From Planctomycetota bacterium (GTDB lineage: Bacteria > Planctomycetota > UBA1135 > UBA2386), in contig JBKAGP010000001.1 in NCBI GenBank assembly GCA_046290465.1, positions 2,080,001 through 2,144,000 on the forward strand: a stretch of DNA of 64,000 nucleotides. The letters run 5' to 3'. This document shows, piece by piece, positions 41,620 to 57,143 of the stretch. Position 1 is the stretch's first letter, and the number at the start of each line of letters is the position of its first letter. Made by a program: the position numbers and the translations under genes. Below the pieces are notes generated by a model. That model saw nothing but the letters and a program-made list of their open reading frames with translations. It made no database searches and was not told the DNA's origin.

Positions 41620-42195
41620 ATGAACCAGCCGACCCGACCCGTGGCGCAGCCAGCCCGTCCGTCGTTCCCGACCGGCGAACCGACCACCTACCTCGGCCCC
41701 GCCCGCGTCCTCGCCAGCGCAGGCGGACCACTGCGCGCCGTTCTCGAGGACGACGCAGCCACCGAGGTCGTGGTGCAGCCGGCGTTGACGTTCCCGTACG
41801 AACCGCACGAAGGCGACGTCCTGCTGGTGCTCGGCCAACCGTCGCAGCACTTCGCCGTCGGGGTGATCGCCGCCAGCAAGCCGCAGGGCCTGACGTTCCC
41901 CGGCGAGACCCGGGTGCACGCCAGCCAGGGCCGCCTGGTGCTGAGCAGCGACCAGGCCGTCGAGCTGCGCGCCCCGCGGGTCTCGGTGCGCACAGGACTG
42001 TTGCGCACGATCGCGACGCGTGTCGTCGAGAAGGCCGGCAGCATGCGCCGCTGGGTGCGCGGCGTGTTCGCCCTGCGCGCCGGCGAGTCCCGTCGGCTCG
42101 TCGACGGCCTCGACAGCACCCGCTGCGAGAACTCCACCACCCTCGCCAAGGACACCGTCAAGATCGACGGCGACCAGCTCCACCTCGGGCACTGA
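41620..42195 (+). CDS. DUF3540 family protein (TagC-like), copy 1
   Basis: Y-x-P-x-x-GDVLLV, 7-8-residue periodic C-terminus ending VKIDGDQLHLG; adjacent to vgrG. Confidence 0.8.
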   Translation: MNQPTRPVAQPARPSFPTGEPTTYLGPARVLASAGGPLRAVLEDDAATEVVVQPALTFPYEPHEGDVLLVLGQPSQHFAVGVIAASKPQGLTFPGETRVHASQGRLVLSSDQAVELRAPRVSVRTGLLRTIATRVVEKAGSMRRWVRGVFALRAGESRRLVDGLDSTRCENSTTLAKDTVKIDGDQLHLGH

Positions 42196-42288: not shown

Positions 42289-45174
42289 ATGAAGTTCCAG
42301 AACCAGGTCCTGAGCCTGCACAGCGACGCGCTCGCCGCGGACACGTTGATGGTCCAGAAGCTCTCCGGACGGGAGCAGATGAGCGGGCTGTTCCGCTTCG
42401 ATCTCGACCTGATCTGCAGCGACCCCGAGCTCGACCTCGAAGCCGTGCTGTACGCGCCCGCGAGGCTCGGCATCAAGGTGCAGGTCAAGATCGCCGGCGG
42501 CCAGGTCGGGATGTCGACCCGCGAGATCGCCGGCGTGTTCGAGGAATTCGAGCAGCTCGAGGAGGGGCAGGGCTGGACCAAGTACCGCGCCGTGCTGGTG
42601 CCGAAGCTGTGGAACACGACGCGTTCGTTCCGCAGCCGCATCTTCCAGGAGATGACCATCGAGGACGTCGTCCAGGCGGTGCTCGAGAAGGACGGCCTCG
42701 ATCCACAGCTCGACTTCGAGTTCCAGCTGCAGCGCCACGGCGACGAGGACCCTGAGACCAGGCCGATCTACCCCAAGCGCGAGTACGTCGTGCAATACGA
42801 GGAGAGCGACTGGAACTTCCTGGCGCGCTGGCTCGAGCACGAGGGCATCTACTTCTTCTTCAGCAACGAAGACGGCGAGGAGAAGGTGGTGTTCGCCGAC
42901 ACCGAGTCTGCGTACGCCGACTCGCCGTTCGGCTCGAGCTACCCGTATCGCCCCGAGGCCAAGGGCGAGGGAACGGACTCCGACAAGTTCACCGAAGAGG
43001 AGATCCGGAGCTTCCGGTGCCGGCAGACCCGCCTGCCGACCCAGGTCGCGGTCAACGACTACAACTGGCGCGTGCCGAGCGCGCGCCTGCACTTCACCGA
43101 GGACGTGCGTGAGGCCGGCACCGGCCTGCAGACCGAATACAACGACCACTTCAAGGACGAGGCCCAGGGCAAGGCCATCGCCAAGGTCCGTCGCGAAGAA
43201 CTCGAGTGCCGCGCCAAGGTGTTCTACGGCACCGGCAGCTGCCGCGCGTTCCGCCCTGGCACGACCTTCGCGCTGGAGGAGCACTTCCGCGACGACTTCA
43301 ACCGCAGCTACCTGCTGGTGTCGGTCGAGCACGAAGCCGAGCAGATGATCAGCCTGGAGTCGTCGACGATCACCGGGGTCAAGTACGAGAACACCTTCAC
43401 GGCGATCTCCGACGACCAGCCCTGGCGCCCGGAGCGACGCACCGAGTGGCCGTCGATCAAGGGCGTCATGCACGCCAAGGTCGACGCCGAGGGCGACGGC
43501 ACGTTCGCCGAGCTCGACGAGCACGGCCGCTACAAGCTCAAGATGCCGTTCGACGAGCACTCGGACGAGGCCGACGACGGCAAGGCCTCCCGCTGGGTCC
43601 GGATGGCGCAGCCCTACGCCGGGGTCAACGCGGGCATGCACTTCCCGCTGCTGAAGGGCACCGAGGTCCTGGTCACGCACATCGACGGCGACCCGGATCG
43701 GCCGATCATCAGCGGCGCGGTCCCGAACCCCGAGACCGAGAGCCCGGCGACCAACGCGACGCTGACGCGCAACGCGATGACCACGGCCAGCGGCAACACG
43801 ATGCAGATCGACGATGCGCCGGAGGCGCGCGGCTTCCTGATGGCGGACGCCAGCGGCTCGATCGTCGACGACCGTCGCCGCCACATGCCGCGCGGCTCGG
43901 CCGCGGCCAACGCGTCGTCACCGGGCGGCGGCAACGGCGCCGTGCGGCCCGCTGCCGATGGCGTAGCCCCCACCCCGGCCGCGCACGACGAACGGCCGGG
44001 CTCCGGAGCCGGCATGGCGCGCGGTGACGAGGACTTCGAGAACAAGGTGTCGCAGTGGGACGGCGACGCCCGCAGCGCCTGGCACACGTTCATGAGCGGC
44101 GACGCGCTGCGCGACATCAAGACGCGGGGCTGCTACCAGACGGACTCCGCGCCCGGCGACGGATCCGACGCCAACAGCCTCAGCACGGCCGACTGGTCGA
44201 GCCAGGGCGGCGTGCAGGGGCCGACCGACGACAACAACGCGCTCAACCACGCCGGCTTCAAGGAGATCCTCAAGAACCTGTCGACGGTCGCCGTCAACCT
44301 CGGCTACGAGGGCTTCTCCCGCGGCGGCGACCAGCGCGTCGGCCTGGCCGAGTTCTTCCGCCAGGTGCACAACTTCACCGGCGAGGCCTACGGCTCGCGC
44401 CTGCGCACCTGGGTCGGCGACGACTGGATGATCAAGTGGGGTGACAAGTACACCTACAACGATGTCACCAACGATGTCTCGATCGGCACCGGTGGTTTCG
44501 GCTGGAAGGAGGAGCACGGCGACACCGACGACCACAGCTGGCACTGGGGCACCGCCAAGAGCTACAGCCACCACACCGGAGACGACGTATCGCGCAGCTA
44601 CCGCAAGGGCCGGTGGGCGTCCGATTCGTATACCTACGGTGCGTTCGCCGCGTTCAACCTGCAGTTCGACGCGCACGCGACGTTCTCGTTGACCGGCTCG
44701 ATCCACACCGAAAACAGCATCGACCTCGGCGTCTACAACTCGAACTCGGTCTTCGTCGGGGTGAAGGGCGGCATCGAGGTGACCCTGGCGGCGCTGATCG
44801 ACACGCAGATCGGGCTGACCCGGACGTTCCTCGAGGTCGGCAGCGACAGCCGCCTGAAGATGACCAGGGAGGACGGTGTCTGGCTGACCAAGAGCGAGGC
44901 CGGACTGAAGGACTTCAAGGCGACCTTGAGCAAGACGGACGCCGCGCTGAAGTCCGAGGTCGCCGCGCTCAAGCGGGACATCGCCGCGCTGAGCAAGACG
45001 GACGCCGCCGTCAAGCAGACCGACGCCGCCGTCTCGCAGTCCGCCGCAGCGGTCAAGGACGACAAGGCGGCCGTCAACGCACAGCTCGCAGCGATCATGC
45101 GCAACAGCCTGTCGGCCTCGAGTTCGAGCCAGTCGGCCAGCAGCACCGAACTCAACGCGTTCAAGAGCATGTGA
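42289..45174 (+). CDS. vgrG: T6SS spike protein VgrG (TssI) with atypical C-terminus
   Basis: GREQMSGLFRF, SRIFQ, REYVVQYEESDWNFLARWLEHEGIYFFF, GRYK...FD, WVRMAQPYAG...HFPLLKGTEVLV...GDPDRPII. Confidence 0.95.
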   Translation: MKFQNQVLSLHSDALAADTLMVQKLSGREQMSGLFRFDLDLICSDPELDLEAVLYAPARLGIKVQVKIAGGQVGMSTREIAGVFEEFEQLEEGQGWTKYRAVLVPKLWNTTRSFRSRIFQEMTIEDVVQAVLEKDGLDPQLDFEFQLQRHGDEDPETRPIYPKREYVVQYEESDWNFLARWLEHEGIYFFFSNEDGEEKVVFADTESAYADSPFGSSYPYRPEAKGEGTDSDKFTEEEIRSFRCRQTRLPTQVAVNDYNWRVPSARLHFTEDVREAGTGLQTEYNDHFKDEAQGKAIAKVRREELECRAKVFYGTGSCRAFRPGTTFALEEHFRDDFNRSYLLVSVEHEAEQMISLESSTITGVKYENTFTAISDDQPWRPERRTEWPSIKGVMHAKVDAEGDGTFAELDEHGRYKLKMPFDEHSDEADDGKASRWVRMAQPYAGVNAGMHFPLLKGTEVLVTHIDGDPDRPIISGAVPNPETESPATNATLTRNAMTTASGNTMQIDDAPEARGFLMADASGSIVDDRRRHMPRGSAAANASSPGGGNGAVRPAADGVAPTPAAHDERPGSGAGMARGDEDFENKVSQWDGDARSAWHTFMSGDALRDIKTRGCYQTDSAPGDGSDANSLSTADWSSQGGVQGPTDDNNALNHAGFKEILKNLSTVAVNLGYEGFSRGGDQRVGLAEFFRQVHNFTGEAYGSRLRTWVGDDWMIKWGDKYTYNDVTNDVSIGTGGFGWKEEHGDTDDHSWHWGTAKSYSHHTGDDVSRSYRKGRWASDSYTYGAFAAFNLQFDAHATFSLTGSIHTENSIDLGVYNSNSVFVGVKGGIEVTLAALIDTQIGLTRTFLEVGSDSRLKMTREDGVWLTKSEAGLKDFKATLSKTDAALKSEVAALKRDIAALSKTDAAVKQTDAAVSQSAAAVKDDKAAVNAQLAAIMRNSLSASSSSQSASSTELNAFKSM

Positions 45175-45178
45175 CGCC

Positions 45179-48100
45179 GTGATCCATCAGAACCTGACAC
45201 CATTCGCGTGGGGACCCGTGGTCACCTCGCGCAAGGACAAGGACGTCGAGCTGGCGGTCTGCGTGCGGGGCACGTACACGCTCGTTCCCGGCGAACCGCC
45301 GGCGCCGATCGAGGACCCGCTCGAGCGCGGCTTCATGAGCGGCGAGACCTTCGCCGACGAGGACATCAACCAGCTCGGCGCGTCGCTGCGCGGCGACGAC
45401 TTCGCCCACTGGAAGCTGCACGGGGAGGCGCTGTTGCGCGGCAGCTTCCACCACGCGGACGGCACCGGTCGCGAGGGGGTCGCGCGGTTCTCGGTCGGAA
45501 CCTGGTCGAAGCAGATCCACGTGACCGGACCGCGCGCCTACAAGAAGGGCATGTTGCTCGGCGGCTCCGCTGGCGAACCGCAGCCGTTTCGGAGCATGCC
45601 GTTGACGTGGGAGAACGCCTATGGCGGCGCCGGCTACGCCAGCAACCCGGTCGGGCGCGGCTTCACCGGCGAGGAGCTGCCGACGCTGTCCTTGCCCGGC
45701 CAGCCGGTCCGCAAGATCGGCCAGCGTGACGTTCCGCCGGCGACGTTCCTGCCGATCAGTTCGCACTGGCCGCAGCGCAGCGGCAAGCGCGGCCGCAACT
45801 ACGGCAAGCAGTGGCAGAAGGCCCGCGCGCCGTTCTTCAGCGACGACTTCGACTGGACCTACTACCAGTCCGCACCACCCGACCAGTGGGTCGAGGGCTA
45901 CTGGCGCGGCGACGAGACGCTGACGTTCGAGAACCTGCACCCGACGCAGGCTCGCTGGCAGACGCAGCTGCCGGCGGTGCGCGTGCGGTCGTTCGTCAAG
46001 ACGACCGACGGCCGCATCCACGAGCCGGACATGCACCTCGACACCGTGTTCGCCGACGTCGACGACGGCAAGCTCTACCTGACCTGGCGGGGCCATGCGC
46101 CGATCCAGCGGATCGACATGACCGACGTCGCCGTCGTGTTGCTGGCACACGAGCCGCTCGCGGACGCGCCGACCGATGCGCAGGTCTACATCGACCAGCT
46201 GAAGGCGTTCGAGGACGACCCGGTCGGGCTGAAGGCTGCGTTCCCCGCGGGCTTCCTGATGTTCGCCGACGCCATCGAAGCCGTCGAGCAGGCGGAACTC
46301 GACGGAACGCCGATGCCCGACCTGCAGAAGGTGCAGGACGAACTGCCGCCCGAGTGCCCGATGCCGCCGTGGTTCCTGGCCGCCGTCGCCGGCGACGAGG
46401 ACCCTCTGGGCATCGAGGACAAGTTTCCGCCGGGCATGTTGGACGGCTCCGCAGCACCGGGGGCGGCCGAGGCCGGCGGGCTCGCCGATCCCGACACGCA
46501 GGCCGGCATGTTCGCCGACCTGGAGAAGCTCGGGGACGATCCGGGCCTCGCCGCCGAACTGCTCGACGGCATCGTCGGCCTGCTTCCGGCCGACAAGCAG
46601 GCCGGCCTCAAGGAGGGCATCCGCGCGCTCGCCGAGACGCTCGACGCGGTCAAGGCGGACGCGGGCGCCGACGTCTTCACCAAGGCGGCCACGGCCGCGA
46701 AGTCGTCACCTCCGGCGAAGCCTGCGGCGGAGAGCTACGGCGACATGATGGCCACCGCCAACGAACAGGTGTCGATCGCCGGCGACGCGGCCGACACCGC
46801 CGAGACCGCAGCCAAGGTCCAGGAGGCCCAGGCCAACCTCGACAAGGCGCCGCAGTCGCTCGACGATGCAGTGGCGCAGGGCCTGAAGCCGCTCGAGGAC
46901 ATCGACATCCCCGACGTCCCCGACCTGCCGGACGGCGACGCCGTGCTCGCGGAGCAGGCCGCGATGATCGATCGCGAAGAGGCGCGCATGCGCGACAAGC
47001 TCGGCGACCATCCGATGCTCGGCATCTTCGCGATGGGTCGCAACCTGATCGAGAACGCGCCGCGCCCCGGACAGCTCGCGCCCGACCTCAGCGCGATCCC
47101 CGCGGGGCTGCAGCGCGCCCAGCAAGCGCTCGCCGCGCAGGGTGTGTCGGCCGCCGCCATGGCGCCGCTTTCCGCGCTGATCGCCAAGGTCCAGACGCTG
47201 GTCGACAACTGCCCCAAACCGGACCCGCTGCCCGAAGGCGAGTTCGTGGCGCAGGACCTGCGTCGCCGTGACTTCTCGGGACAGGATCTGCGCGGGCAAA
47301 CCTTCTGCAAGGCCGACCTGACCGGCGCGCTGTTCTGCTCGGCGGACCTGACCGGCGCCGACTTCACCCAGGCGGACCTGACCAAGGCGGACCTGACCGG
47401 AGCGACGCTGACGGAGGCGACGTTCAAGCGCGCCAACCTGAGCAAGGCGCAGTTCACGAACGTCACGGCTCCGCGCGCTTCGTTCGCCGACGCCGACATC
47501 ACGGCGACGGACTTCGCCAACGCCGACCTGACCGGCGCGAAGTTCACCAACGCCCGCGGCGAGAAGGCCGACTTCGGCTCCGCCACGCTGATCGACGCAG
47601 ACGCGAGGTTCAGCGACCTGTCCAAGGCCGACCTCCGAGCTGCCGACCTCACCCGCGCAAACCTGTCGTTCGCGACCCTGCACCTGGTCAAGGCCGACCG
47701 CGCCGACCTGACCGAAGCCAACCTCGAACTCTGCAAGCTGACCCGCTCGCGACTGCATGACGCCGTGCTGCGGAACAGCCGCTCCACGATGGCCTTCTTC
47801 ACCGCGAGCAACCTGACCGGCGCCGACCTGCGCGGCTGCCGCTACGAGAAGTGCGACTTCTCCAAGGCGACGCTGGACCGCGCCGACCTGCGGGGCTCGG
47901 ACCTGAGCCACACCCTGTTCCGCGACGCCATCGCCACCGCGGCCGACTTCCGTGAGGCGGTGCTGACCGGCTGCTCCACCACCGGCGAAGCCCGCTTCAC
48001 GCAGTGCGACTTCCGGCATGCAGAGGGGCCGCGCAGCGTCTGGATGGATGTCGAGCTGACCGGCTCGACGTTCCGACACGGGGACTTCGGGCACGCCTAC

Positions 48101-48382
48101 TTCGACGGCGCCCGGGGCAGCGACATCGACTTCGTGGCGACGGGCCTGAAGTACGCCAACTTCCGCCGCGTCGAACTGTGCCGGGTGTCGTTCGCGTTCG
48201 CGGACCTCGCCGGGGCCGTGTTCCAGGACGCGACCGTCGACGACGGCGACTTCCAGCGCAGCAACTGCTACGACGCCAAGTTCCTCGGCGCCCGCGCCAC
48301 CCGCTGCCGCTTCTCCGATGCATTCCTGGTCGGCGTGCAGCTCGACGACCCCGACAACGAACCACCCGGAGGTGACCGATGA
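45179..48382 (+). CDS. DUF2169 + acidic linker + pentapeptide-repeat protein (TagAB-like)
   Basis: MPLTWENAYGG, NPVGRGF, WPQR, PFFSDDFDWTYYQSAPPDQ, LENLHP-like, LDTV...LTWR, followed by A(D/N)Lxx repeats. Confidence 0.88.
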   Translation: MIHQNLTPFAWGPVVTSRKDKDVELAVCVRGTYTLVPGEPPAPIEDPLERGFMSGETFADEDINQLGASLRGDDFAHWKLHGEALLRGSFHHADGTGREGVARFSVGTWSKQIHVTGPRAYKKGMLLGGSAGEPQPFRSMPLTWENAYGGAGYASNPVGRGFTGEELPTLSLPGQPVRKIGQRDVPPATFLPISSHWPQRSGKRGRNYGKQWQKARAPFFSDDFDWTYYQSAPPDQWVEGYWRGDETLTFENLHPTQARWQTQLPAVRVRSFVKTTDGRIHEPDMHLDTVFADVDDGKLYLTWRGHAPIQRIDMTDVAVVLLAHEPLADAPTDAQVYIDQLKAFEDDPVGLKAAFPAGFLMFADAIEAVEQAELDGTPMPDLQKVQDELPPECPMPPWFLAAVAGDEDPLGIEDKFPPGMLDGSAAPGAAEAGGLADPDTQAGMFADLEKLGDDPGLAAELLDGIVGLLPADKQAGLKEGIRALAETLDAVKADAGADVFTKAATAAKSSPPAKPAAESYGDMMATANEQVSIAGDAADTAETAAKVQEAQANLDKAPQSLDDAVAQGLKPLEDIDIPDVPDLPDGDAVLAEQAAMIDREEARMRDKLGDHPMLGIFAMGRNLIENAPRPGQLAPDLSAIPAGLQRAQQALAAQGVSAAAMAPLSALIAKVQTLVDNCPKPDPLPEGEFVAQDLRRRDFSGQDLRGQTFCKADLTGALFCSADLTGADFTQADLTKADLTGATLTEATFKRANLSKAQFTNVTAPRASFADADITATDFANADLTGAKFTNARGEKADFGSATLIDADARFSDLSKADLRAADLTRANLSFATLHLVKADRADLTEANLELCKLTRSRLHDAVLRNSRSTMAFFTASNLTGADLRGCRYEKCDFSKATLDRADLRGSDLSHTLFRDAIATAADFREAVLTGCSTTGEARFTQCDFRHAEGPRSVWMDVELTGSTFRHGDFGHAYFDGARGSDIDFVATGLKYANFRRVELCRVSFAFADLAGAVFQDATVDDGDFQRSNCYDAKFLGARATRCRFSDAFLVGVQLDDPDNEPPGGDR

Positions 48383-50517
48383 CCTGGGGATCGCTCGACC
48401 GCGACACGGTCCTGCAGCGCATCGCCGGCGGCGAGCCGCTCGCCGACTGCTCGTTGTCCGACCTCGACCTCGGTGGCCAGTCGCTGCGCGGCGCGAACTT
48501 CGACGGCGCCGTGCTCGAGCGGATCGACCTCCGCGGCTGCGACCTGACCGGCGCCAGCTTCCGCGGGACCACGCTGCTGGACTGCCAGTTCGCCGAAGCG
48601 ACGCTGGCGGGTTCGCAGTGGTCCGGCTGCCATGCCCTGCAATCCGACTTCGCGAACCTCGACTTCGCCGGAGCAGAGGTGATCGGGAGCCAGTTCGTGC
48701 AGTGCCACCTACCGCACGCGAAGTTCGACGAGGTCCGCCTCGACCAGACGACCTTCGCGTCGTGCGCGATGTCGCGAGCGAGCTTTGCCGGGGCCAGCCT
48801 GCGCAGCGCCGTGCTCGCGCAGTGCGAGCTCGACGGCGCGCAGCTGGCCGGAGCCGACCTGACCGAAGCGACGCTCGCGCTGTCGAACCTCGAAGGCGCC
48901 GTGCTGCGCGATTGCAAGCTCGGGTTCGCGTCGCCGGCCAAGGCCAACCTGCAGGGTGCCGACCTGCGCGGCGCCGACCTCAACGAGACGATGCTCGCCG
49001 GCGCCGACCTGCGCCGTGCCGACCTGCGTGAGTGCAAGATGTCGCAGTCGCTGTTCGCCAACGCCGACCTTCGCGGCGCGCTGCTGCCGGCCGGCGAACT
49101 GCAGGGCCTGATGTTCAACAACGCCGACCTGACCGGCTGCGACCTGTCGCAGACCAGCCTGGTCAAGTGCATGCTCAACGGCGCGGTGCTCGACGCGGTG
49201 ACGTTCGGCGACGGGCAGGCGATCCGCGAGTGCCTCGCCAACGGTGCGTCGTTCCAGCACGCCACCTTCGCTCGCCTGCAGCTCGAACAGACCGTGATGG
49301 AGGACGCCGACCTGCGCGGAGCGGACCTGTCGCAGGCGACCGTCGCAACGACGCGCATGCCGCGCAGCGACCTGCGCGGAGCGCGCCTGCCCGAACGGCT
49401 GGTCGACTGCTCGTTCGCGCACGGTCGCCTCGACCCCGACACGTTGCGCGGCAAGGTGCTGACCGGCGCCGACCTCGAGGGCATCGACTTCGCCGGCTAC
49501 TGCTTCGACGGGTGCGACCTGCACCGCGCGTCGTTCCAGGGCTGCAACGTGCAGGGAGCCAGCTTCCGCGGCGCCCGGCTCGAGGCAGCCAACCTGCAGG
49601 AGTGCGACCTCGCCGGCGTCGACTTCACCGATGCGGACCTGCGGCACGCCCGCTTCGGCAAGGCGCGACTCGCCGGTGTCGACCTGTCGGGCCATGACCT
49701 GACCATGACGCAGTTCCGGGAGGCCGACCTGACCGGCGCCGACCTGACCGGCTGCGACCTGTCGATCGCCGACTTCGGCGACGCGAGGCTCGACCGCGCC
49801 AACCTCAGCCGCGTGCGTATGAACGGCGGCAGCCTGGCCCACGCCTCGATCGAGGGCCTCGTGCTCGAGAACGCCGAGCTGCACGGTGATCTCAGCGAAC
49901 TCGACTACGACCACCTGACGTTCCGCGGCCAGACCTTCAGCCGCTGTTCGTTCCGCGGCGCGGACCTCAGCGGACGCGACCTGTCCGGCTGCGACCTGAC
50001 CCAGAGCCTGTTCCACATGGCGAACCTCGCCGGCGCGAAGTTCACCGGCAGCCGCCTGCACCTGGCGAACTTCTGCGAGGCCGACCTCAGCGACGCCGAC
50101 TTCGAAGGCGTGACCGCGACGATCGCGAACTTCGCCAGGGCCACGATGCACGGGACCAGGCTGCGCGGAGCGAACCTGCGCAACGCGATCCTGCCCGAGG
50201 CCGAAGCGCTGCGTTGCGACTTCGGCGGGTGCGATCTGCGCGAGTCCGTCTGGACCCGGGCGGACCTGACCGGCAGCAGCTTCGTCGGGGCCAACCTGAC
50301 GCACGCCGAGATGAGCTACGCCACGCTCGACGGCTGCGATCTCGACATGAGTGATCTGACCTGGGCCAACCTGCACGGCGTGCTCGAGAAGGAGACGCGC
50401 TGGGGCAAGGCGATCCGCAGCAAGGCGCGCAAGACCGACGACGATCGCCTGCATGGCGAACACGGCTTCCGTCGCCCGACGCCCGAAGAACTCGAACGGA
50501 TGGGGATCGACCCATGA
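48379..50517 (+). CDS. pentapeptide-repeat protein (TagB-like)
   Basis: Nearly the whole 712 aa is A(D/N)(L/F)xx repeats; ATGA-coupled to its neighbours. Confidence 0.92.
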   Translation: MTWGSLDRDTVLQRIAGGEPLADCSLSDLDLGGQSLRGANFDGAVLERIDLRGCDLTGASFRGTTLLDCQFAEATLAGSQWSGCHALQSDFANLDFAGAEVIGSQFVQCHLPHAKFDEVRLDQTTFASCAMSRASFAGASLRSAVLAQCELDGAQLAGADLTEATLALSNLEGAVLRDCKLGFASPAKANLQGADLRGADLNETMLAGADLRRADLRECKMSQSLFANADLRGALLPAGELQGLMFNNADLTGCDLSQTSLVKCMLNGAVLDAVTFGDGQAIRECLANGASFQHATFARLQLEQTVMEDADLRGADLSQATVATTRMPRSDLRGARLPERLVDCSFAHGRLDPDTLRGKVLTGADLEGIDFAGYCFDGCDLHRASFQGCNVQGASFRGARLEAANLQECDLAGVDFTDADLRHARFGKARLAGVDLSGHDLTMTQFREADLTGADLTGCDLSIADFGDARLDRANLSRVRMNGGSLAHASIEGLVLENAELHGDLSELDYDHLTFRGQTFSRCSFRGADLSGRDLSGCDLTQSLFHMANLAGAKFTGSRLHLANFCEADLSDADFEGVTATIANFARATMHGTRLRGANLRNAILPEAEALRCDFGGCDLRESVWTRADLTGSSFVGANLTHAEMSYATLDGCDLDMSDLTWANLHGVLEKETRWGKAIRSKARKTDDDRLHGEHGFRRPTPEELERMGIDP

Positions 50518-51446
50518 TGCCAGCGGCCAACCAGGGGGTCGGGATGAACCTGGGCTTTCCGGACGTCTGCACGACGCCGGCAGCTCCTGCCCCGATCCCG
50601 ATCCCGTATCCGAACATCGGCATGAACGCGATGGCGATGCCGTTCGTGCCCAACGTGCTGGTGTCGTTCGCGCCGGCGCAGAACATGGCGGCCAAACCAC
50701 TGCTGACCAATGGCGACAACGCCGGCGTCGCCCACCCCTTGTTCATGCAGCCGGGCGGGACCACCGTCGGCAAGCCCAACCTGCTGGTCGGCGGCATGCC
50801 GGCAGGCCACCTGACCAACCCGACCTACGGCAACAACTTCAACAACCCGGTCGGCGCCAAGATCGTGCCCAGCATCACCAACGTGCTGATGGGCTACACC
50901 CCGTCGCTGACCCCGTCGCAACGGGCGTTCGGCGCGCGCCTGGTCCGCTCGGAGGGCAGCTCGATGCGCTGCACGGCCGGCCTGCTGCAGCTCCGGATCC
51001 CGTGCATCGGCCTCGGCACCGACCGGTGGCTCGCGCGGGGCCTGTCGCGGCTGCGCGGCGTCGCGATCCGCGCCGTCGCGCTCGACCTGCGTGGCAATCC
51101 CGGAGGCGTGATCACGGTCGCGGCCCGGCTCGCGCTGCTGCTGCTGCGCCTCGATGTGCCGATCGCCGTCGCCATCGACCGCGACACCGCATCCGCCGCC
51201 GAACTGCTCGCCACGGCGCTCGACGCCCGCACGTTCGGAGAGCGCTCCTTCGGCAAGGCCCGGGCGACGACGTTCGACGTGCACGCCGCGGACCTGTCGG
51301 CCCGCGGCGATGCCCCGACGGTGACGTTCGCACGAGCCGGCGGCGAGACCATCGACGGCGTCGGCCTGCCCCCCGACCAGCCGTGCGCACCCGAGCAGGC
51401 CCACGCCGAGTCGATCGCGTGGCTGCAGACCCGCCGAGCGACATGA
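50514..51446 (+). CDS. DUF4150 (PAAR-like, PIPY motif) domain fused to S41-family peptidase domain
   Basis: N-terminal FPDVCTTP...PIPIPYPN...GDNAG...N; C-terminal ALDLRGNPGG, TASAAE, GERSFGK, IDGVGLPPD. Confidence 0.82.
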   Translation: MMPAANQGVGMNLGFPDVCTTPAAPAPIPIPYPNIGMNAMAMPFVPNVLVSFAPAQNMAAKPLLTNGDNAGVAHPLFMQPGGTTVGKPNLLVGGMPAGHLTNPTYGNNFNNPVGAKIVPSITNVLMGYTPSLTPSQRAFGARLVRSEGSSMRCTAGLLQLRIPCIGLGTDRWLARGLSRLRGVAIRAVALDLRGNPGGVITVAARLALLLLRLDVPIAVAIDRDTASAAELLATALDARTFGERSFGKARATTFDVHAADLSARGDAPTVTFARAGGETIDGVGLPPDQPCAPEQAHAESIAWLQTRRAT

Positions 51447-52201
51447 CGGATCCATCGAACAACACCACCGACTGGCTGCAGGCATTCCTGCCGCTCGGCA
51501 CCGTTCGCAGCGACAGCTGGGAGCCGCGCGGCGGCGGCGTGCTGATCCTCGACCGTCCGGTCGTCTGGCTGGTCACCGGGCGCCAGGTCGTCGACCCGGT
51601 CGGCGACGAGGAGCTGGCCACCTGGATCCCGAACGAACGGGGCGTCGGGTTGCTCAACCTGACGCGCAACCAGCGCCAGACCGGCATGCCGTGGGTCCAC
51701 CACCCGGTCGGACTCAGCGCGGCCATGCTGCCGCTCGACCCGAGCTTCCGCATCAAGGCGTTCGCCGAGACCCAGTGCACGCGCGTTCGCGACCTGCAGC
51801 CGATGCAGCCGGCCGCCTCCGTCGGTCGACTCTACGGCCCCGACATCGCGCCCGACCAGGCCGCGCCGCCGGCGGTGCTCGACGGCATCATCTCGGCCGC
51901 CGACGCGAAGTCCGGCTCGATCTTCACGACCGCGCCGATGCTGCCGCGCAACCTCGGCGCTCCGCTCGTGCTGGCGTCGCCCTACGGTGGCCCGGTCACG
52001 CTCGCCGGCATCCTGCTCGGCAACACGATGGTCAACGAACCCGACCCGCGCATGCTGCCCGTTCGCCTCGGCCGGGCCATCTGCGTCGACGCCGCATGGG
52101 AACTGGTCCGCGGTGCGGAAGCCTCCGAGCAGCGTCGACGGGTCACGGCCAGTGAGGGATCCGACGACGCCGAGCGCAGCGACGAGGAGCCAACCGCATG
52201 A
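51443..52201 (+). CDS. trypsin-like fold protein with degenerate catalytic triad
   Basis: ATG at 51443 overlaps the upstream TGA. GGGVLI...WLVTGRQVV, WVHHPVGLSAAM, DGIIS...IFTTAPMLPRNLGAPL...LAGI. Confidence 0.65.
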   Translation: MTDPSNNTTDWLQAFLPLGTVRSDSWEPRGGGVLILDRPVVWLVTGRQVVDPVGDEELATWIPNERGVGLLNLTRNQRQTGMPWVHHPVGLSAAMLPLDPSFRIKAFAETQCTRVRDLQPMQPAASVGRLYGPDIAPDQAAPPAVLDGIISAADAKSGSIFTTAPMLPRNLGAPLVLASPYGGPVTLAGILLGNTMVNEPDPRMLPVRLGRAICVDAAWELVRGAEASEQRRRVTASEGSDDAERSDEEPTA

Positions 52202-52716
52202 GTGCGGCGGTCTACGTCGGTCCCGCCCGCGTGCTGCGCATGGACGGCGAACGCCCCCACGTCCAGGTGCTCGGCGGAGGCTGCGAGACGGCGACGGCGG
52301 ACTGGGCACTGCCGTTCCGCTACGAGCCGGCGACGGGCGACCTGCTGCTGGTGATCGGACAGAGCGGCCGCTACTGGGTGACCGGCATCGTGCACGGGGC
52401 CGGACGATCGCAGCTCGCGTTTGCTGGCCACACCGAGCTGAACGCGGCCGGCGGACCGCTGCACCTGTCCGCCGACGGCGGCGTTCGCATCCAGTCGCCA
52501 GCGGTCGGCGTCGAGGCCGATGTGTTCGAGACCGAGACGAACGCCACACACCAGCGGCTCGACCAGTGCGACAGCGAGGTCTCCGGCACCCTCGACGAGC
52601 GATCCGGGGAGAGCATGCGCGACATCGACGGCGAGGACGCGGTCACGGCTGCGCAGACCTCGACGGTGGCGGCGAGGGTCGCGAAGATCGACGGCGGCCT
52701 GCTGCGCCTCAGCTAG
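52198..52716 (+). CDS. DUF3540 family protein, copy 2
   Basis: YVGPARV...YEPATGDLLLVIG matches copy 1 (YLGPARV...YEPHEGDVLLVLG); ends AKIDGGLLRLS. Confidence 0.78.
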   Translation: MSAAVYVGPARVLRMDGERPHVQVLGGGCETATADWALPFRYEPATGDLLLVIGQSGRYWVTGIVHGAGRSQLAFAGHTELNAAGGPLHLSADGGVRIQSPAVGVEADVFETETNATHQRLDQCDSEVSGTLDERSGESMRDIDGEDAVTAAQTSTVAARVAKIDGGLLRLS

Positions 52717-52860: not shown

Positions 52861-53730
52861 ATGACGCAAGGTCACGACAACCAGGCACCCGACGGCGCGA
52901 TCGACGTCTCGTTCGATACGCTCGCCCGGCTGCTCGGCGGCGCGCGCGCGGCCGAGGCCCTTGCCGACCATGCCGACGCCGCACCGCACATCGCGGCGCT
53001 CGACGGTCCCGCCGCATGGCTGACGCCCGGCACCGACGCCACGACACCGAGCGCCGGCACCATCCGCCAGCTCGCGCTCGAGGTGCTGTCGCTCAAGCTT
53101 CGCACGTTCGCGGCGATCGTCGACCAGGTGCCGCCGCAGCTGCCGTCGCTGCCGCCCGAGCACGTTCGGGTGCAGCTGCTCGACGGCACCGGCCTGCCCG
53201 GCGCAAGGCGCTGGAACGTGCATGTGTCGCTCGTCGCCGGTGGCGGTGCGCCCGCCGACCGCGCCGCCGGTGCCGACGCCGGCCTGCGCACGTCGCTGGG
53301 TCGGCTGCTGGCGCGCCTGCTGTTCGAGAGCGACCGACGCCGTGGCGATGAGGCGCAGCAGCACGGCGTCGGCCTGGCCAGCACGTTCGCCACCGGCTCT
53401 GGCACGTCGCCCGCCGAGAACGCCGAACGCCTGTTCGCCAACGGTCCGGGCGGAGACAGCTCCGTGGTGCTGTTCTCGTCGGGGCATCGCGACCTGCTCG
53501 CGGGCAAGGCCCTGCCGGCAGGGCTGTGGGCGCAGGTCGGTGGACTGCTGCTACGTCTGCTGACGGACGTCTCCGAGTTCTCGCTGCCCGACCCTCCGAT
53601 CGACGCGTTGCGTCCGCGGCTTGCGCAGCTGATCCGACGACTCGACATCGCGACGTTCGGCGCCATCGCGCGGCGCGACGAGATCAGCGACCTGCTGCGC
53701 CAGAACCTGGCGCGCCTGAAGCAGGACTGA
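52861..53730 (+). CDS. hypothetical protein at end of T6SS cluster
   Basis: Long GC3-biased ORF co-directional with the cluster; no confident family assignment. Confidence 0.6.
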   Translation: MTQGHDNQAPDGAIDVSFDTLARLLGGARAAEALADHADAAPHIAALDGPAAWLTPGTDATTPSAGTIRQLALEVLSLKLRTFAAIVDQVPPQLPSLPPEHVRVQLLDGTGLPGARRWNVHVSLVAGGGAPADRAAGADAGLRTSLGRLLARLLFESDRRRGDEAQQHGVGLASTFATGSGTSPAENAERLFANGPGGDSSVVLFSSGHRDLLAGKALPAGLWAQVGGLLLRLLTDVSEFSLPDPPIDALRPRLAQLIRRLDIATFGAIARRDEISDLLRQNLARLKQD

Positions 53731-53833: not shown

Positions 53834-55693
53834 CTACTTCGCGAACGCCTCGACCTCGCAGAGACGGCTGAACGACGGGAACGTCAACCCGTGGCAGCCC
53901 TGCGTGACGATGCGCACGTAGCGCACCGTCCGCGGCTCGAAGCGGTGCTCGACGAAGCTCTGTTCGCCGCGCGTGCCCTTGCCCGACGTGCCGACCTGCT
54001 GCCACGCCGATCCGTCGACGGAGACGTGCAGGTCGTAGATCTCGTGGCTCTGGCCGACCGCGCGTTCGTGCACGACCACGCGCCCGACCGTCGCCGGGAC
54101 GCGCAGCTCGAGCGTGATCTCGAGCGGCTGTGGCTGCGTCGGGTAGCCGAGGAAGTGGTCGAACCGGTCCGGGATGCCGTTGGTCAGACGGTCCGGACCG
54201 AACACCGGCTGGCTCGTGCCGGCCGACGCGGTCACCCTGGCGCGGTATGCGTAGTTGTCGCGCTGCGTCGCAGGATCCGCAAACGCGGTGCGGCCCAGAT
54301 CGGTGCGAGCAACCGCCGCGCAGCGCGGCAGCAGACGCCGCTGCCGCTCCTGGAACCCGTCGAAGTCGCGTTCGCCGTCGGGGTTCCACGCCCTCGCGGC
54401 CACCGCCGCGAAGCGCGGCACGCACAGCTTGGCGACGTTCTCCTGGCGGCCCTCCCACCACGGCATCATGAAGCCGACGATGCCGTCCCGGGTGCGCGTG
54501 CGGTGCGGCTCCGCGAACGTCGGCATGCCGTGGTTGACGTGCTTGAACTCCTGCAGGTCCCACTGGTAGCACCGCTTGACCGGCACCGCGGTGAACATCG
54601 TGCGCGGGTAGTGGTCGACGATGTACATCGGATCCCACGCCGCGTTGACGACCTGGTAGCCGGCGTCGAGCATCTGCTGGGCCGGGAAGTCGACGGTGCG
54701 CCAGTTGACGTGCAGCACGTCGGTGTCGACCTTGTGCTTGCCCTCGCCGAGGCGCGGCCCCTCCCACGCCATCGGCCGCCGCCCGCGCTGCTTGACGAAC
54801 AACGCCAGCCGGCTGACGAAGTCGCGCTGGTCGTCCTCCGGCACGCCGTAGGCCTCGTCGCCGCCGATGTGCACGTAGGGCGACGACGCGAACACCTGCA
54901 TCAACTCCGCCAGCAGCGCCTTCATGCCCTCGGTCGCCGACGGCAGTGTGGCGAGGTCCTTGGGCGACTTGCCGAACACCTCCGGGTAACGCTGGCGCAG
55001 GATCGTCGAGTGCGCCGGCACGTCGATCTCCGGGATGATCGCGACGCCGCGCGCCCGGGCGTACTGCTCCAGATCGACGAAGTCCTGCCACGACCACCCC
55101 GACCGTTCGTCGAACAGCTTCGGATAGACGCGCGACGGCCAGCTGAACAGCTGGTCGTCGCTCAGGTGCAGCTGCAGGTAGTTGACCTTGTAAAACCAGC
55201 ACGCGTCGACGATCTGCCGCAGCACGGCGGGGCCGTGCGGATTGCGCCCCATGTCGACCATGAAGCAGCGGAACGGCATCGCCGGCTCGTCGGTGATCGT
55301 GACCCGCGGGAACGTCGCCACGCCGTCGACGATCTCGGCCAGCTGCAGCAGCGTCGCGGCCGCGCGCGCAGCACCCTGCGGCGCCGCCGCGGTCACCACC
55401 AGGCCGGCCTCGTCGGGCGCGATCCGGTACCACTCCGCGCCCCCGGCGTCGGCCTGGTAGCGGAACGACACGCGCCCGGGAGCGCTCGACTTCTGCTGCA
55501 GCCGCGCGCCGGCGAGCTGCAGCGCGCTCGCGAACGCGCTGCCCTGCGACGACGTCTCGATGCTGCCACCAGTGACCCGGCCGATCGCGACCGCGCCGTC
55601 CGCGCGCACGACCTGGCGCGGCTGCGGCACGACCGGCAACTGCGCCGCCACCGTGCCGGCGAGCGCGAGGCACGCCGTCATCGTGCGCATCAT
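53834..55693 (-). CDS. GH20 beta-N-acetylhexosaminidase with C-terminal F5/8-type (CBM32-like) domain
   Basis: Signal peptide, ITDEP...FRCFMVDMGRN, LQLHLSDDQ, PEIDVPAH, HIGGDE, and a discoidin-like end RYVRI...LCEVEAF. ATG at 55693. Confidence 0.9.
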   Translation of the reverse strand: MMRTMTACLALAGTVAAQLPVVPQPRQVVRADGAVAIGRVTGGSIETSSQGSAFASALQLAGARLQQKSSAPGRVSFRYQADAGGAEWYRIAPDEAGLVVTAAAPQGAARAAATLLQLAEIVDGVATFPRVTITDEPAMPFRCFMVDMGRNPHGPAVLRQIVDACWFYKVNYLQLHLSDDQLFSWPSRVYPKLFDERSGWSWQDFVDLEQYARARGVAIIPEIDVPAHSTILRQRYPEVFGKSPKDLATLPSATEGMKALLAELMQVFASSPYVHIGGDEAYGVPEDDQRDFVSRLALFVKQRGRRPMAWEGPRLGEGKHKVDTDVLHVNWRTVDFPAQQMLDAGYQVVNAAWDPMYIVDHYPRTMFTAVPVKRCYQWDLQEFKHVNHGMPTFAEPHRTRTRDGIVGFMMPWWEGRQENVAKLCVPRFAAVAARAWNPDGERDFDGFQERQRRLLPRCAAVARTDLGRTAFADPATQRDNYAYRARVTASAGTSQPVFGPDRLTNGIPDRFDHFLGYPTQPQPLEITLELRVPATVGRVVVHERAVGQSHEIYDLHVSVDGSAWQQVGTSGKGTRGEQSFVEHRFEPRTVRYVRIVTQGCHGLTFPSFSRLCEVEAFAK

Positions 55694-56154
55694 GCGTCTT
55701 CCTCTTCCCAGAGGTCGTCGTCGGCCGCCCACTCGTGCAGCGTCTCGGCGCGGCTGATCAGCATCGGCACCAGCTCGGCGTCGTCGGCGATGCCCTCGAT
55801 CTCGATCGCGTCGCTGACCTTGCCGTCGCGCACGTCCTGCGCGTAGGCGAGCCAGCGGTCGGCGATGGCGTGCATCGCGTCGCGCGGATGCGGGTGATCG
55901 TCCGCCGACGCCAGGTCCATCGGGACGTCGCCGGAGATCACCCACGCCCCCACCGTCTCGGGACGCCGCTTGCTCTCGATCGCCCACAGCGCCACGTAGG
56001 GCGCCACGAACCACGCCGGCTCCTCGCCGATGCGGCCGTGCTCGACCTTCTCGTCGCGCAGGTAGGTCTCGACATGGCCGCGCACTTCCGCGCACCAGCG
56101 GTCCTGGACCGCGGGATCGTCCCAATCGGGCTCTCGATGGTCTGCTTCGCTCAT
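55690..56154 (-). CDS. DUF4826-like protein
   Basis: PYVALWAIES...WVISGDVPMD...PRDAM...ADRW...W. Confidence 0.72.
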   Translation of the reverse strand: MSEADHREPDWDDPAVQDRWCAEVRGHVETYLRDEKVEHGRIGEEPAWFVAPYVALWAIESKRRPETVGAWVISGDVPMDLASADDHPHPRDAMHAIADRWLAYAQDVRDGKVSDAIEIEGIADDAELVPMLISRAETLHEWAADDDLWEEEDA

Positions 56155-57143
56155 GGCTGCTGGTCGACCTTCGTGGTCGCTTGCTCCTCGGACCGCCCGT
56201 TGCCGGACGGCTTGTGGTGGTTGGATGGCTCGCCCCCGGCCGCACCGTTGCCGGAGCCCGAACCCGATGGCGTCGCCTCCTTCGCGGGCCCCTTCTTCGG
56301 TTGGCCCTTCTTCGGTTGGCCCGTCTTCGGTTGGCCCGTCTTCGGTTGGCCCGTCTTCGGTTGGCCCGCCTCAGGTTGGGCCTGCTTTGGTAGGGGCTTC
56401 TTCGCGAGTTCCTTCATCGCCGCGTGCGTCGGCGGCTGCTTCAGTCGCTGGTGCACGCCCTTCATGCCCTCGGTGCGCAGCACGTGCAGGAAGTAGTTGC
56501 GGCCGCGCACGTAGCTCGGGTCCAGGCCGACTGCGAGGCCGCCGTACGGCCCCGTCAGCATGAAGTCCTCGAGCCCGAGTTCGCGTTCGGCGATCAGCTC
56601 CTCGACGAGCACCGCGTGCCCCTCGATCAGCCATTTGTAGCGCAGGATCTCGTCGATCTCCGTCGCGGCCTCGAGCTTCGACGGCAGGCCGAAGTGCACC
56701 TCCTGCAGCGCGTGCACGATCTCGTGCGCGATGGTCGCCTTCTGGTGCGCGACCGCCTTGCGCGTATGCCGCGGCGCGTCGTCGTCGAGATCCTTGATCA
56801 GCGGCGCGACCACCAGCGGCGACAGCACGATCTCCTTCGAGCTCGCCAGGTAGACGCCCAGCGTCGACACGCTCATCTGGAACAGCTCGCGCCCGCCCTC
56901 GATCTCGAACTCGCGCTGGATCAGTTCGCGCCATTCCTTGTGCTTGGCGGCGCGGACCGTGGGCGGCGTCTCGAACTTCAGCTGCGCATACTTCTCGACG
57001 ATCCGAACCATCTCGTCGACGGCCTTCTGCAGCCGCAGGTCGCGCTTGCTCGGCGGCTTCTTCTCGAGCGGGTCCTGCTGCGCCGAAGCACCGACGGACA
57101 GCGCCAACGCGACGCACAGGGCCGAGGTGATCGGAGAACGCAT
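56151..57143 (-). CDS. secreted putative zinc metallopeptidase with low-complexity tail
   Basis: Signal peptide, AHEIVHALQE (HExxH), downstream LIEGHA, and GQPK(T/K) repeats. Confidence 0.7.
   Translation of the reverse strand: MRSPITSALCVALALSVGASAQQDPLEKKPPSKRDLRLQKAVDEMVRIVEKYAQLKFETPPTVRAAKHKEWRELIQREFEIEGGRELFQMSVSTLGVYLASSKEIVLSPLVVAPLIKDLDDDAPRHTRKAVAHQKATIAHEIVHALQEVHFGLPSKLEAATEIDEILRYKWLIEGHAVLVEELIAERELGLEDFMLTGPYGGLAVGLDPSYVRGRNYFLHVLRTEGMKGVHQRLKQPPTHAAMKELAKKPLPKQAQPEAGQPKTGQPKTGQPKTGQPKKGQPKKGPAKEATPSGSGSGNGAAGGEPSNHHKPSGNGRSEEQATTKVDQQP
56295..56384. repeat. 15-bp coding tandem repeat (CTTCGGTTGGCCCGT, 5 copies plus one degenerate)
   Basis: Encodes GQPKT/GQPKK repeats on the minus strand. 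Confidence 0.9.

Follow-up and report, generated by a model that had tools for sequence, protein, structure and literature searches.

In a 64,000-nucleotide stretch from a Planctomycetota bacterium (contig JBKAGP010000001.1, positions 2,080,001 to 2,144,000; hereafter the window), we identified a gene that fuses a PAAR-like (DUF4150) domain for the spike tip of a T6SS (type VI secretion system) to a protease core of the S41 family. The gene and its parts, all on the forward strand and numbered from the first letter of the window, are the following:

50514..51446, forward: PAAR-like (DUF4150) and S41 protease fusion protein, 310 residues (open reading frame (ORF) list, Pfam, codon-position GC)
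50541..50849, forward: PAAR-like spike-tip domain, residues 10-112, with FPDVC at 50556-50570 and PIPYPN at 50598-50615 (PF13665)
50892..51443, forward: PDZ-less S41 protease core, residues 127-310 (PF03572, structural model, VIA-align)
51084..51107, 51192..51194, 51255..51257 and 51267..51269, forward: sites of the S41 core, respectively the oxyanion-hole motif DLRGNPGG, Ser227, Lys248 and Thr252

The fusion gene shares 4 bp with each of its neighbours: its ATG at 50514 lies across the stop codon of the upstream gene (ATGA), and the following gene begins with an ATG that lies across its TGA at 51444-51446. Between about 50560 and 51370 the third-position GC content of its frame stays at 0.85-0.98, and from about 51443 onwards a different frame is favoured; the N-terminal sequence MMPA(A/S)NQG is kept in homologues. 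Three overlapping ORFs, 50453-52201 on the forward strand and 50316-51485 and 50894-52549 on the reverse strand, were dropped as genes: none has a Pfam family, and codon-position GC favours the 50514 frame followed by the 51443 frame over all three. The presence of such long overlapping ORFs on both strands is attributable to the GC content of 70%.

An earlier note on this DNA had recognized the two parts from six motifs, and these are all found in the order it gave: FPDVC (residues 15-19), PIPYPN (29-34), DLRGNPGG (191-198), TASAAE (225-230), GERSFGK (242-248) and GVGLPPD (282-288). The profile comparison that it proposed bears out the assignment of both domains, as PF13665 and PF03572 each match above their gathering scores. 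With 85.5 bits (E 3.3e-24; cut-off 31), the PF13665 match spans residues 10-112 of the protein and 1-107 of the 108 profile positions, and the fusion is the sole DUF4150 match in the genome. Genes for DUF4150 proteins are described as co-occurring with vgrG and a gene for a DUF2169 chaperone (PMC11883445, PMC13373197, in their accessible text); likewise, vgrG and a gene coding for a DUF2169-pentapeptide protein lie upstream of the fusion in the same operon. An AlphaFold2 model of the fusion, built from 116 homologues, assigns its PAAR part a predicted local distance difference test score (pLDDT) of 47-79 as a monomer, and scores above 90 to residues about 140-310; the tip is joined to the S41 core by a flexible linker of low pLDDT (residues about 125-133).

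The PF03572 match, which scores 42.3 bits (E 7.6e-11; cut-off 24), falls into two stretches, because the domain has suffered an internal deletion. A phmmer comparison with solved structures recovers C-terminal processing proteases (CTPs), namely the Helicobacter pylori CtpA, the D1 C-terminal processing protease, the Pseudomonas aeruginosa CtpA, CtpB and Prc (E 1.8e-5 to 6.6e-5). Relative to the CTPs, these alignments show that about 25 residues are gone between the helix following DLRGNPGG and the strand bearing the serine, and that 4 further residues are missing between the Ser and the Lys. In the alignment to the D1 protease and CtpA, TA-S-AAE falls on TA-S-ASE and FGK on FGK. The catalytic dyad of the D1 protease, which we take to be Ser372 and Lys397, lies 25 residues apart; as the spacing of the D1 motifs fits this pair, Ser227 and Lys248 correspond to the catalytic dyad, in agreement with the earlier note, which had regarded it as retained. 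The position of the CtpB-type triad Gln is occupied by Thr252, and the third active-site residue is accordingly not kept. With VIA-align, residues 127-310 of the model superpose on the H. pylori CtpA (9jr1; Z 20.1, rmsd 2.4 A over 175 residues), the P. aeruginosa CtpA (Z 19.3) and CtpB (4c2f; Z 19.1). Further matches are Prc, the D1 protease, CPAF, IRBP (Z 14-15) and NSR, which confers nisin resistance (Z 16.6); the unrelated crotonase-fold enzymes come next at Z 12-13. Foldseek agrees on the S41 fold. Since the aligned ranges begin before the PDZ domain of CtpA and resume after it, the PDZ domain has been excised from an otherwise complete core; consistent with its absence, as also noted earlier, the Pfam search finds no PDZ family in the fusion protein at E <= 0.01. 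The score against the NCBIfam model of the CTP subfamily, TIGR00225, is 40.8 bits against a cut-off of 218.6, and an exhaustive search with the C-terminal 186 residues alone returned 1143 matches at E <= 0.001, of which 4 have E <= 1e-10. Judged by its sequence, the domain is a divergent branch of the S41 family.

The fusion is no one-off. Among proteins of similar length, a search at E <= 0.001 recovered at least 323 relatives, drawn from Planctomycetota and polyangial Myxococcota, which answers the question of how widespread it is with a large, conserved family. PF13665 and PF03572 are both present in 118 of the 120 listed among these 323, and 16 of the 120 have PDZ families too; their database names are automatic ones, such as 'PAAR-like domain-containing protein', 'DUF4150 domain-containing protein' and 'carboxyl-terminal processing protease'. 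A separate scan of one genome per species found relatives at 373 places, and all locus counts given here refer to the best 80 of these 373. The kept loci come mostly from metagenome-assembled genomes of Planctomycetota and from Polyangiaceae, Sorangium, Polyangium, Chondromyces apiculatus, Minicystis rosea and Byssovorax; at 8 of the 80 the gene codes for a bare PAAR protein of 131-132 residues. Single myxobacterial genomes hold several complete modules, each with a PAAR-S41 of its own, as in the case of L013, L029 and L079, which belong to one genome. For the comparison of residues we used 68 complete fusions of 250-520 residues, i.e. that of the window and those of 67 loci, leaving out 13 loci in which the PAAR ORF was cut (3: L008, L011 and L024), shorter than 250 residues (9) or 632 residues long (1).

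Ser227, Lys248, Asp191, Gly197, Gly198 and Gly242 are invariant in all 68 fusions, and the triad position is Gln in 49 of them. A PDZ-sized insert follows the PAAR domain in 6 of the 68, another 53 have no PDZ but keep the segment of about 25 residues, and both elements are gone in 9 (the window, L001-L007 and L009), all of them from Planctomycetota save L003, which is labelled 'uncultured bacterium'. By these counts, loss of the PDZ domain is the rule in the family, and the window protein belongs to its most reduced clade. All 68 fusions stop shortly after the S41 core. When the longer forms (544-2000 residues) were inspected, they comprised just 5 ordinary CTPs devoid of PAAR, and no PAAR-S41-toxin arrangement was seen among them, which is weak evidence. 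In the seven closest loci, identity to the window is 78-86% for PAAR, 61-63% for TvpA, 53-66% for the product of the gene after the fusion (X252), 46-53% for VgrG, 46-54% for TvpC, 36-47% for S41 and 32-36% for Y289, a protein encoded at the end of the module. Thus, S41 is the fastest-evolving of the recognized parts of the module, with Y289 alone lower.

The window also carries a complete T6SS cluster, with genes upstream of the fusion coding for Fha, TssJ, TssK, TssL, TssM, TagF, TssB, TssC, Hcp, TssF and a ClpB/ClpV-type AAA+ ATPase. Around the fusion gene lie the following:

41620..42195, forward: TvpC-like DUF3540 protein, upstream paralogue (PF12059, E 1.6e-17)
42289..45174, forward: VgrG spike, 961 residues (PF05954, E 1.7e-77; PF04717)
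45179..48382, forward: TvpAB, a DUF2169 PAAR chaperone fused to pentapeptide repeats (PF09937, E 1.4e-68, and pentapeptide-repeat families)
48379..50517, forward: TvpB, a pentapeptide-repeat protein (PF00805, E 1e-103)
51443..52201, forward: X252, a trypsin-fold pseudoprotease of 252 residues, translationally coupled to the fusion (model, Foldseek, distant homologues)
52198..52716, forward: TvpC-like DUF3540 protein, downstream paralogue (PF12059, 34.7 bits against a cut-off of 27.9)
52861..53730, forward: Y289, a conserved protein of 289 residues without a family, at the module end (copies in related loci)

Successive genes from 48379-50517 to the second DUF3540 gene overlap by 4 bp. The genome (6.59 Mb, one contig) has one Phage_GPD match, and hence one VgrG, together with one DUF4150 protein, one canonical PAAR protein elsewhere and seven other S41 genes; with a single VgrG and a single DUF4150 protein, the fusion is the tip encoded with the only spike. 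Its location is the one expected of a specialized effector, in that the gene sits in the vgrG/DUF2169 module of the genome's only T6SS and beside the only VgrG found. The canonical PAAR_motif protein is coded by an open frame of 122 residues at G000:C1:979555-979752 on the reverse strand, 1.1 Mb from this T6SS cluster and its VgrG.

With its four defining families all above their cut-offs, the module is a Class III Tvp accessory system. According to the accessible text of Monlezun, Earl and Coulthurst (PMC13373197), Class III comprises TvpAB (DUF2169 with pentapeptide repeats), TvpB, TvpC (DUF3540) and a DUF4150 PAAR protein; TvpAB, TvpB and TvpC form a pre-complex around the PAAR protein, and VgrG then displaces TvpC. 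The same text describes the representative Class III strains as carrying a small PAAR protein without an effector domain, a generalization and not a formal criterion. The window is an exception to it, as a 185-residue S41 domain is attached to its PAAR domain. These Class III surroundings, along with the size and conservation of the family and the dead trypsin-like protein encoded by the next gene, had escaped the earlier note.

Several further features of these modules were observed. The two DUF3540 paralogues, one before vgrG and one after X252, are 35% identical, the upstream copy being closer than the downstream one to the single TvpC of the myxobacterial modules; both copies are also present in L001, L002, L004, L007, L014 and L021, one is found in the myxobacterial modules, and the published model has one TvpC (PMC13373197, accessible text). 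In the VgrG of the window, a Gly/Ala/Pro-rich stretch at about residues 530-590 precedes another beta-rich region, and this is followed by a long, coiled-coil-like tail rich in Ala, Lys, Asp and Ser, which occupies the C-terminal 100 or so residues and is unusual for the protein end that receives the PAAR cap; the tail is within the alignments to L001-L004 and L007-L009. The VgrG proteins of Myxococcota (L022, L029, L079, L013 and others) are about 490 residues long, align to residues 1-510 of the window VgrG and appear to be without the long C-terminal prism; in these modules a DUF3540 gene stands directly before the PAAR-S41 gene, and TvpC may serve there as a permanent spike extension. Myxobacterial Tvp modules also code, beside vgrG, for proteins of 205-230 residues with a COMM domain (PF07258, cut-off 22.4 bits), at L040:3064-3675 (27.0 bits) and L026:11132-11800 on the reverse strand (30.0 bits); further candidates are L048:11167-11865, which is below the cut-off, and L062:2801-3418, which matches COMM_HN just under its cut-off. 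A eukaryote-type COMM-domain protein in a bacterial T6SS module is unexpected.

At the module end, Y289 has no Pfam or NCBIfam family, signal peptide or confident Atlas model (pLDDT 0.33), and its Atlas search gave nothing above 0.83 and no structural match above a TM score of 0.38. Copies 32-36% identical to it are present in six of the seven closest loci (L001-L004, L006 and L007), the contig of L005 ending earlier, and Y289 may be an additional cargo or an immunity protein. The T6SS region is bounded by a convergent gene (53834-56245, reverse strand), probably unrelated to the module, whose product is a GH20 beta-hexosaminidase that carries an F5/8 type C domain at its C-terminus.

The fusion is, as the earlier note had it, the only recognizable enzyme cargo of the cluster, with the qualification that the adjacent gene codes for a protein with a trypsin fold, in which the catalytic His and Ser have been replaced. 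This protein, X252, is not itself matched by any Pfam or NCBIfam family, and a simple hydropathy scan shows no signal peptide or membrane segment. Its model (pLDDT 87.5) is matched by Foldseek to MamO, HtrA, DegS and the V8 protease (E 3e-8). The two most distant of its 25 relatives, P0291 and P0292, pass the cut-off of Trypsin_2 (PF13365) and keep TA(A/K)HV and GNSGGP, for which X252 has TGRQV (His to Gln) and RNLGAP (Ser to Leu), respectively. The Ser is lost (RNxGAP) in every genome-derived copy of X252 examined, and the His in all but one of these; a metagenome scan for relatives keeping the triad yielded just 3 short loci, with the Ser lost in all. Relatives occur in 6 of 401 sampled genomes of the phylum, this genome included, and at 12 of the 80 loci, none of these labelled Myxococcota; none was found at the other 68. 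They start at the fusion stop or within about 60 bp of it in L001-L007, L014 and L016; in L009 the distance is one ORF and in L017 it is 9 kb, and in L021 the relative lies inside a 632-residue open frame starting at the PAAR start. In these Planctomycetota, the frame last named (L021:10001-11899) and those of 641-645 residues in G214 and G276 place X252-like sequence in frame from the PAAR start, and the S41 serine motif was not found in them; a frameshift or an assembly error could account for such PAAR-X252 frames, or the fusion could be real.

The genes downstream of the myxobacterial fusions are heterogeneous. Among the 66 loci with at least 300 bp of downstream sequence, surveyed with a caller based on third-position GC that misses lower-GC loci, a co-directional ORF comes right after the fusion in 26, and the recurrent families are just X252 (7 loci) and VgrG (4 loci). 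X252 is a candidate immunity protein or chaperone.

These observations lead us to favour the proposal that the fusion is a specialized T6SS effector, which delivers a protease into neighbouring cells (probability about 0.55). It has the architecture of such an effector: a tip and an enzyme domain are present in one protein, encoded in a vgrG module of a T6SS-bearing genome. In both architecture and location it resembles all the characterized DUF4150 proteins that bear a C-terminal domain. In the accessible text of PMC13373197, DUF4150 proteins with C-terminal domains (Tde2, Tse7 and VP1415) are delivered effectors that depend on DUF2169. From the domain identity, the conservation and the gene context that we observe, we infer the functional steps as follows. 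The DUF4150 domain would cap the VgrG spike, after the Tvp proteins, by analogy with the published Serratia system, had chaperoned the hydrophobic PAAR domain in a pre-complex on TvpC and handed it over to VgrG. Upon firing, the protease would ride the spike tip into the neighbouring cell, where it might cleave target proteins with no need of a substrate C-terminus to open a PDZ gate, in the manner of a PDZ-deleted CtpB. More tentatively, X252 might hold or block the protease domain in the cytoplasm of the producer, as an immunity protein or a chaperone.

In the S41 core the PDZ domain and, in this clade, the segment of about 25 residues are gone, while every catalytic and oxyanion-hole residue is kept. 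The confidently modelled S41 fold and the invariant catalytic residues speak for this proposal, and the fast divergence of S41 in the seven closest loci fits an effector domain. The nisin resistance protein SaNSR, an S41 peptidase that shares the TASSAE-type serine motif, is experimentally active and shows that such a core is able to attack a foreign peptide (PMC4828448, accessible text). The statement of the earlier note that PDZ domains normally gate S41 proteases stands for one enzyme and fails for another: CtpB without its PDZ domain is constitutively active, whereas Prc without its own is inactive (PMC6686036, accessible text). Hence, 'ungated' can be applied to the window protease in a presumptive sense, and the case of Prc means that the activity of the trimmed core is not assured. 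Other points also weigh against a delivered toxin. No immunity gene is conserved across the family, X252 having relatives at just 12 of the 80 loci; the ORF that follows the fusion in 26 of 66 loci is vgrG itself in 4; the same C-terminal family is kept in two phyla, unlike the cassette swapping typical of polymorphic toxins; and the triad Gln has given way to Thr here, as against Gln in 49 of 68 fusions. Moreover, the representative Class III strains carry PAAR proteins without effector domains (PMC13373197, accessible text).

Some of the same facts would also fit a different substrate. A tentative second explanation, distinctly less probable than delivery, is that the protease borne by the spike acts on the apparatus itself, by trimming the C-terminal tail of VgrG or TvpC or by cutting the TvpAB-TvpB cap, and would thereby ease the replacement of TvpC by VgrG, remove the cap from the spike or set a peptide free. 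A somewhat more doubtful form of it would have S41 as a maturation enzyme at the tip, held where the C-termini of VgrG or TvpC meet PAAR, and not as a toxin of the target cell. S41 enzymes characteristically process protein C-termini, and a PDZ-sized insert, which would bind a C-terminus, is present in 6 of 68 loci (PDZ families in 16 of the 120 listed proteins). The persistence of one protease family on PAAR in both Planctomycetota and Myxococcota, the lack of an immunity gene common to the family, the myxobacterial genomes in which each of several complete modules has its own PAAR-S41, and the long Ala/Lys/Ser-rich tail after the last beta-rich region of the window VgrG are in line with action on the spike. 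So are an unexplained cleavage that would free a cryptic C-terminal peptide of VgrG1 and the unexplained release of the cap before firing (PMC13373197, accessible text). Nevertheless, Class III systems of Serratia, Burkholderia, Pantoea and others work with a bare PAAR protein (same source), and so no protease is needed generally in Class III. Further, the VgrG proteins encoded beside PAAR-S41 share no tail, being about 960 residues long in Planctomycetota and about 490 in Myxococcota, and the structural parts of the module are less diverged than S41.

It is improbable that the S41 domain is a non-catalytic module that fills the baseplate cavity or binds a partner, such as X252 or a cargo effector, having kept the fold and lost the activity as IRBP did. 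The trimming of the core and the replacement of the triad Gln by Thr would agree with this, IRBP (Z 14-15) is a precedent for an S41 fold that is not a protease, and the cavity has been proposed to require an occupant when PAAR is small (PMC13373197, accessible text). Against it, none of the 68 fusions departs from Ser227, Lys248 or the glycines of the oxyanion hole, in a domain otherwise only about 30-47% identical, a pattern of dyad conservation that would be hard to explain without catalysis. Least probable is a releasing peptidase that cleaves itself to free a further toxin domain or PAAR, like the pre-toxin peptidases of polymorphic toxins: a trafficking domain and a flexible linker do immediately precede S41, but nothing follows it, all 68 fusions ending shortly past the core, and the longer proteins provide no PAAR-S41-toxin form, though this last is weak evidence.

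Tip proteins fused to enzymes are well known in T6SS. Proteases, to our knowledge, are few among its characterized toxins. Our literature searches, which did not extend to the supplements of related papers, found no description of a PAAR/DUF4150-S41 fusion: the accessible text of a 2012 survey of polymorphic toxins contains none of the searched terms, and a 2021 survey of PAAR proteins has peptidase toxins solely as M35-like. Thus, the parts, i.e. DUF4150, S41 and Class III Tvp, are known, and their combination, which we did not find in print, is apparently undescribed. What is new is the enzyme class on a PAAR-like tip, as well as the occurrence, in a Class III Tvp system, of a PAAR protein that bears cargo and of a pseudoprotease partner. 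The family, with at least 323 members and a dyad invariant in the 68 compared, is found in predatory or surface-living bacteria of soil and water, and the T6SS biology of its carriers (Polyangiaceae, Sorangium, Chondromyces, Planctomycetota) is almost unstudied. It contradicts the generalization that Class III Tvp systems serve only small, cargo-less PAAR proteins, and it offers a natural test of the idea that a Tvp cap and an effector domain compete for one and the same space in the baseplate. Should the protease prove to be a toxin, a new type of effector and partner would be defined by its targets and by what its dead trypsin-like partner does. If it acts on the spike, it would bring proteolysis into T6SS spike assembly, where no such step is known, with a bearing on the unexplained cleavage of VgrG1 and the release of the cap in Class III Tvp systems. 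In either case, the naturally minimal S41 core is useful for studying proteases without a PDZ gate.

Compared with known systems, the S41 part shares with CtpA, CtpB, Prc and the D1 protease a common core fold (Z 15-20), the DLRGNPGG, TASAAE and FGK motifs and the Ser-Lys dyad. It differs from these CTPs in having no signal peptide, PDZ domain, N- or C-terminal dimerization domains or segment of about 25 residues before the serine strand, in the Thr at the position of the triad Gln, and in scoring far below the NCBIfam cut-offs for CTPs. SaNSR (4y68; Z 16.6) directs an S41 core with a TASSAE-type motif against a molecule of another organism, as proposed for the fusion, and no PDZ domain is mentioned in the accessible text of PMC4828448. 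Unlike the fusion, NSR is a lipoprotein that works on the exterior of the cell producing it, has a cap domain and a dyad of Ser and His, and is unattached to an injection apparatus.

The examples known to us of effectors fused to DUF4150 are nucleases. Tde2 of Agrobacterium tumefaciens, Tse7 of Pseudomonas aeruginosa and VP1415 of Vibrio parahaemolyticus share with the window protein the N-terminal DUF4150 and a C-terminal enzyme domain, and are encoded with vgrG and a DUF2169 gene (PMC13373197, PMC11883445, accessible text). They belong to Tvp Classes I and II and have other toxin domains, whereas the window combines S41 with a Class III system that has pentapeptide and DUF3540 proteins. The same accessory families are encoded in one operon in Serratia marcescens Db10 (VgrG1, TvpAB, TvpB, TvpC and Paar1; PMC13373197, accessible text). 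The Db10 Paar1 is, in that account, small and without further domains; by comparison, the PAAR protein of the window carries a protease of 185 residues, and its module has two DUF3540 paralogues and a gene for a trypsin-fold pseudoprotease after the PAAR gene.

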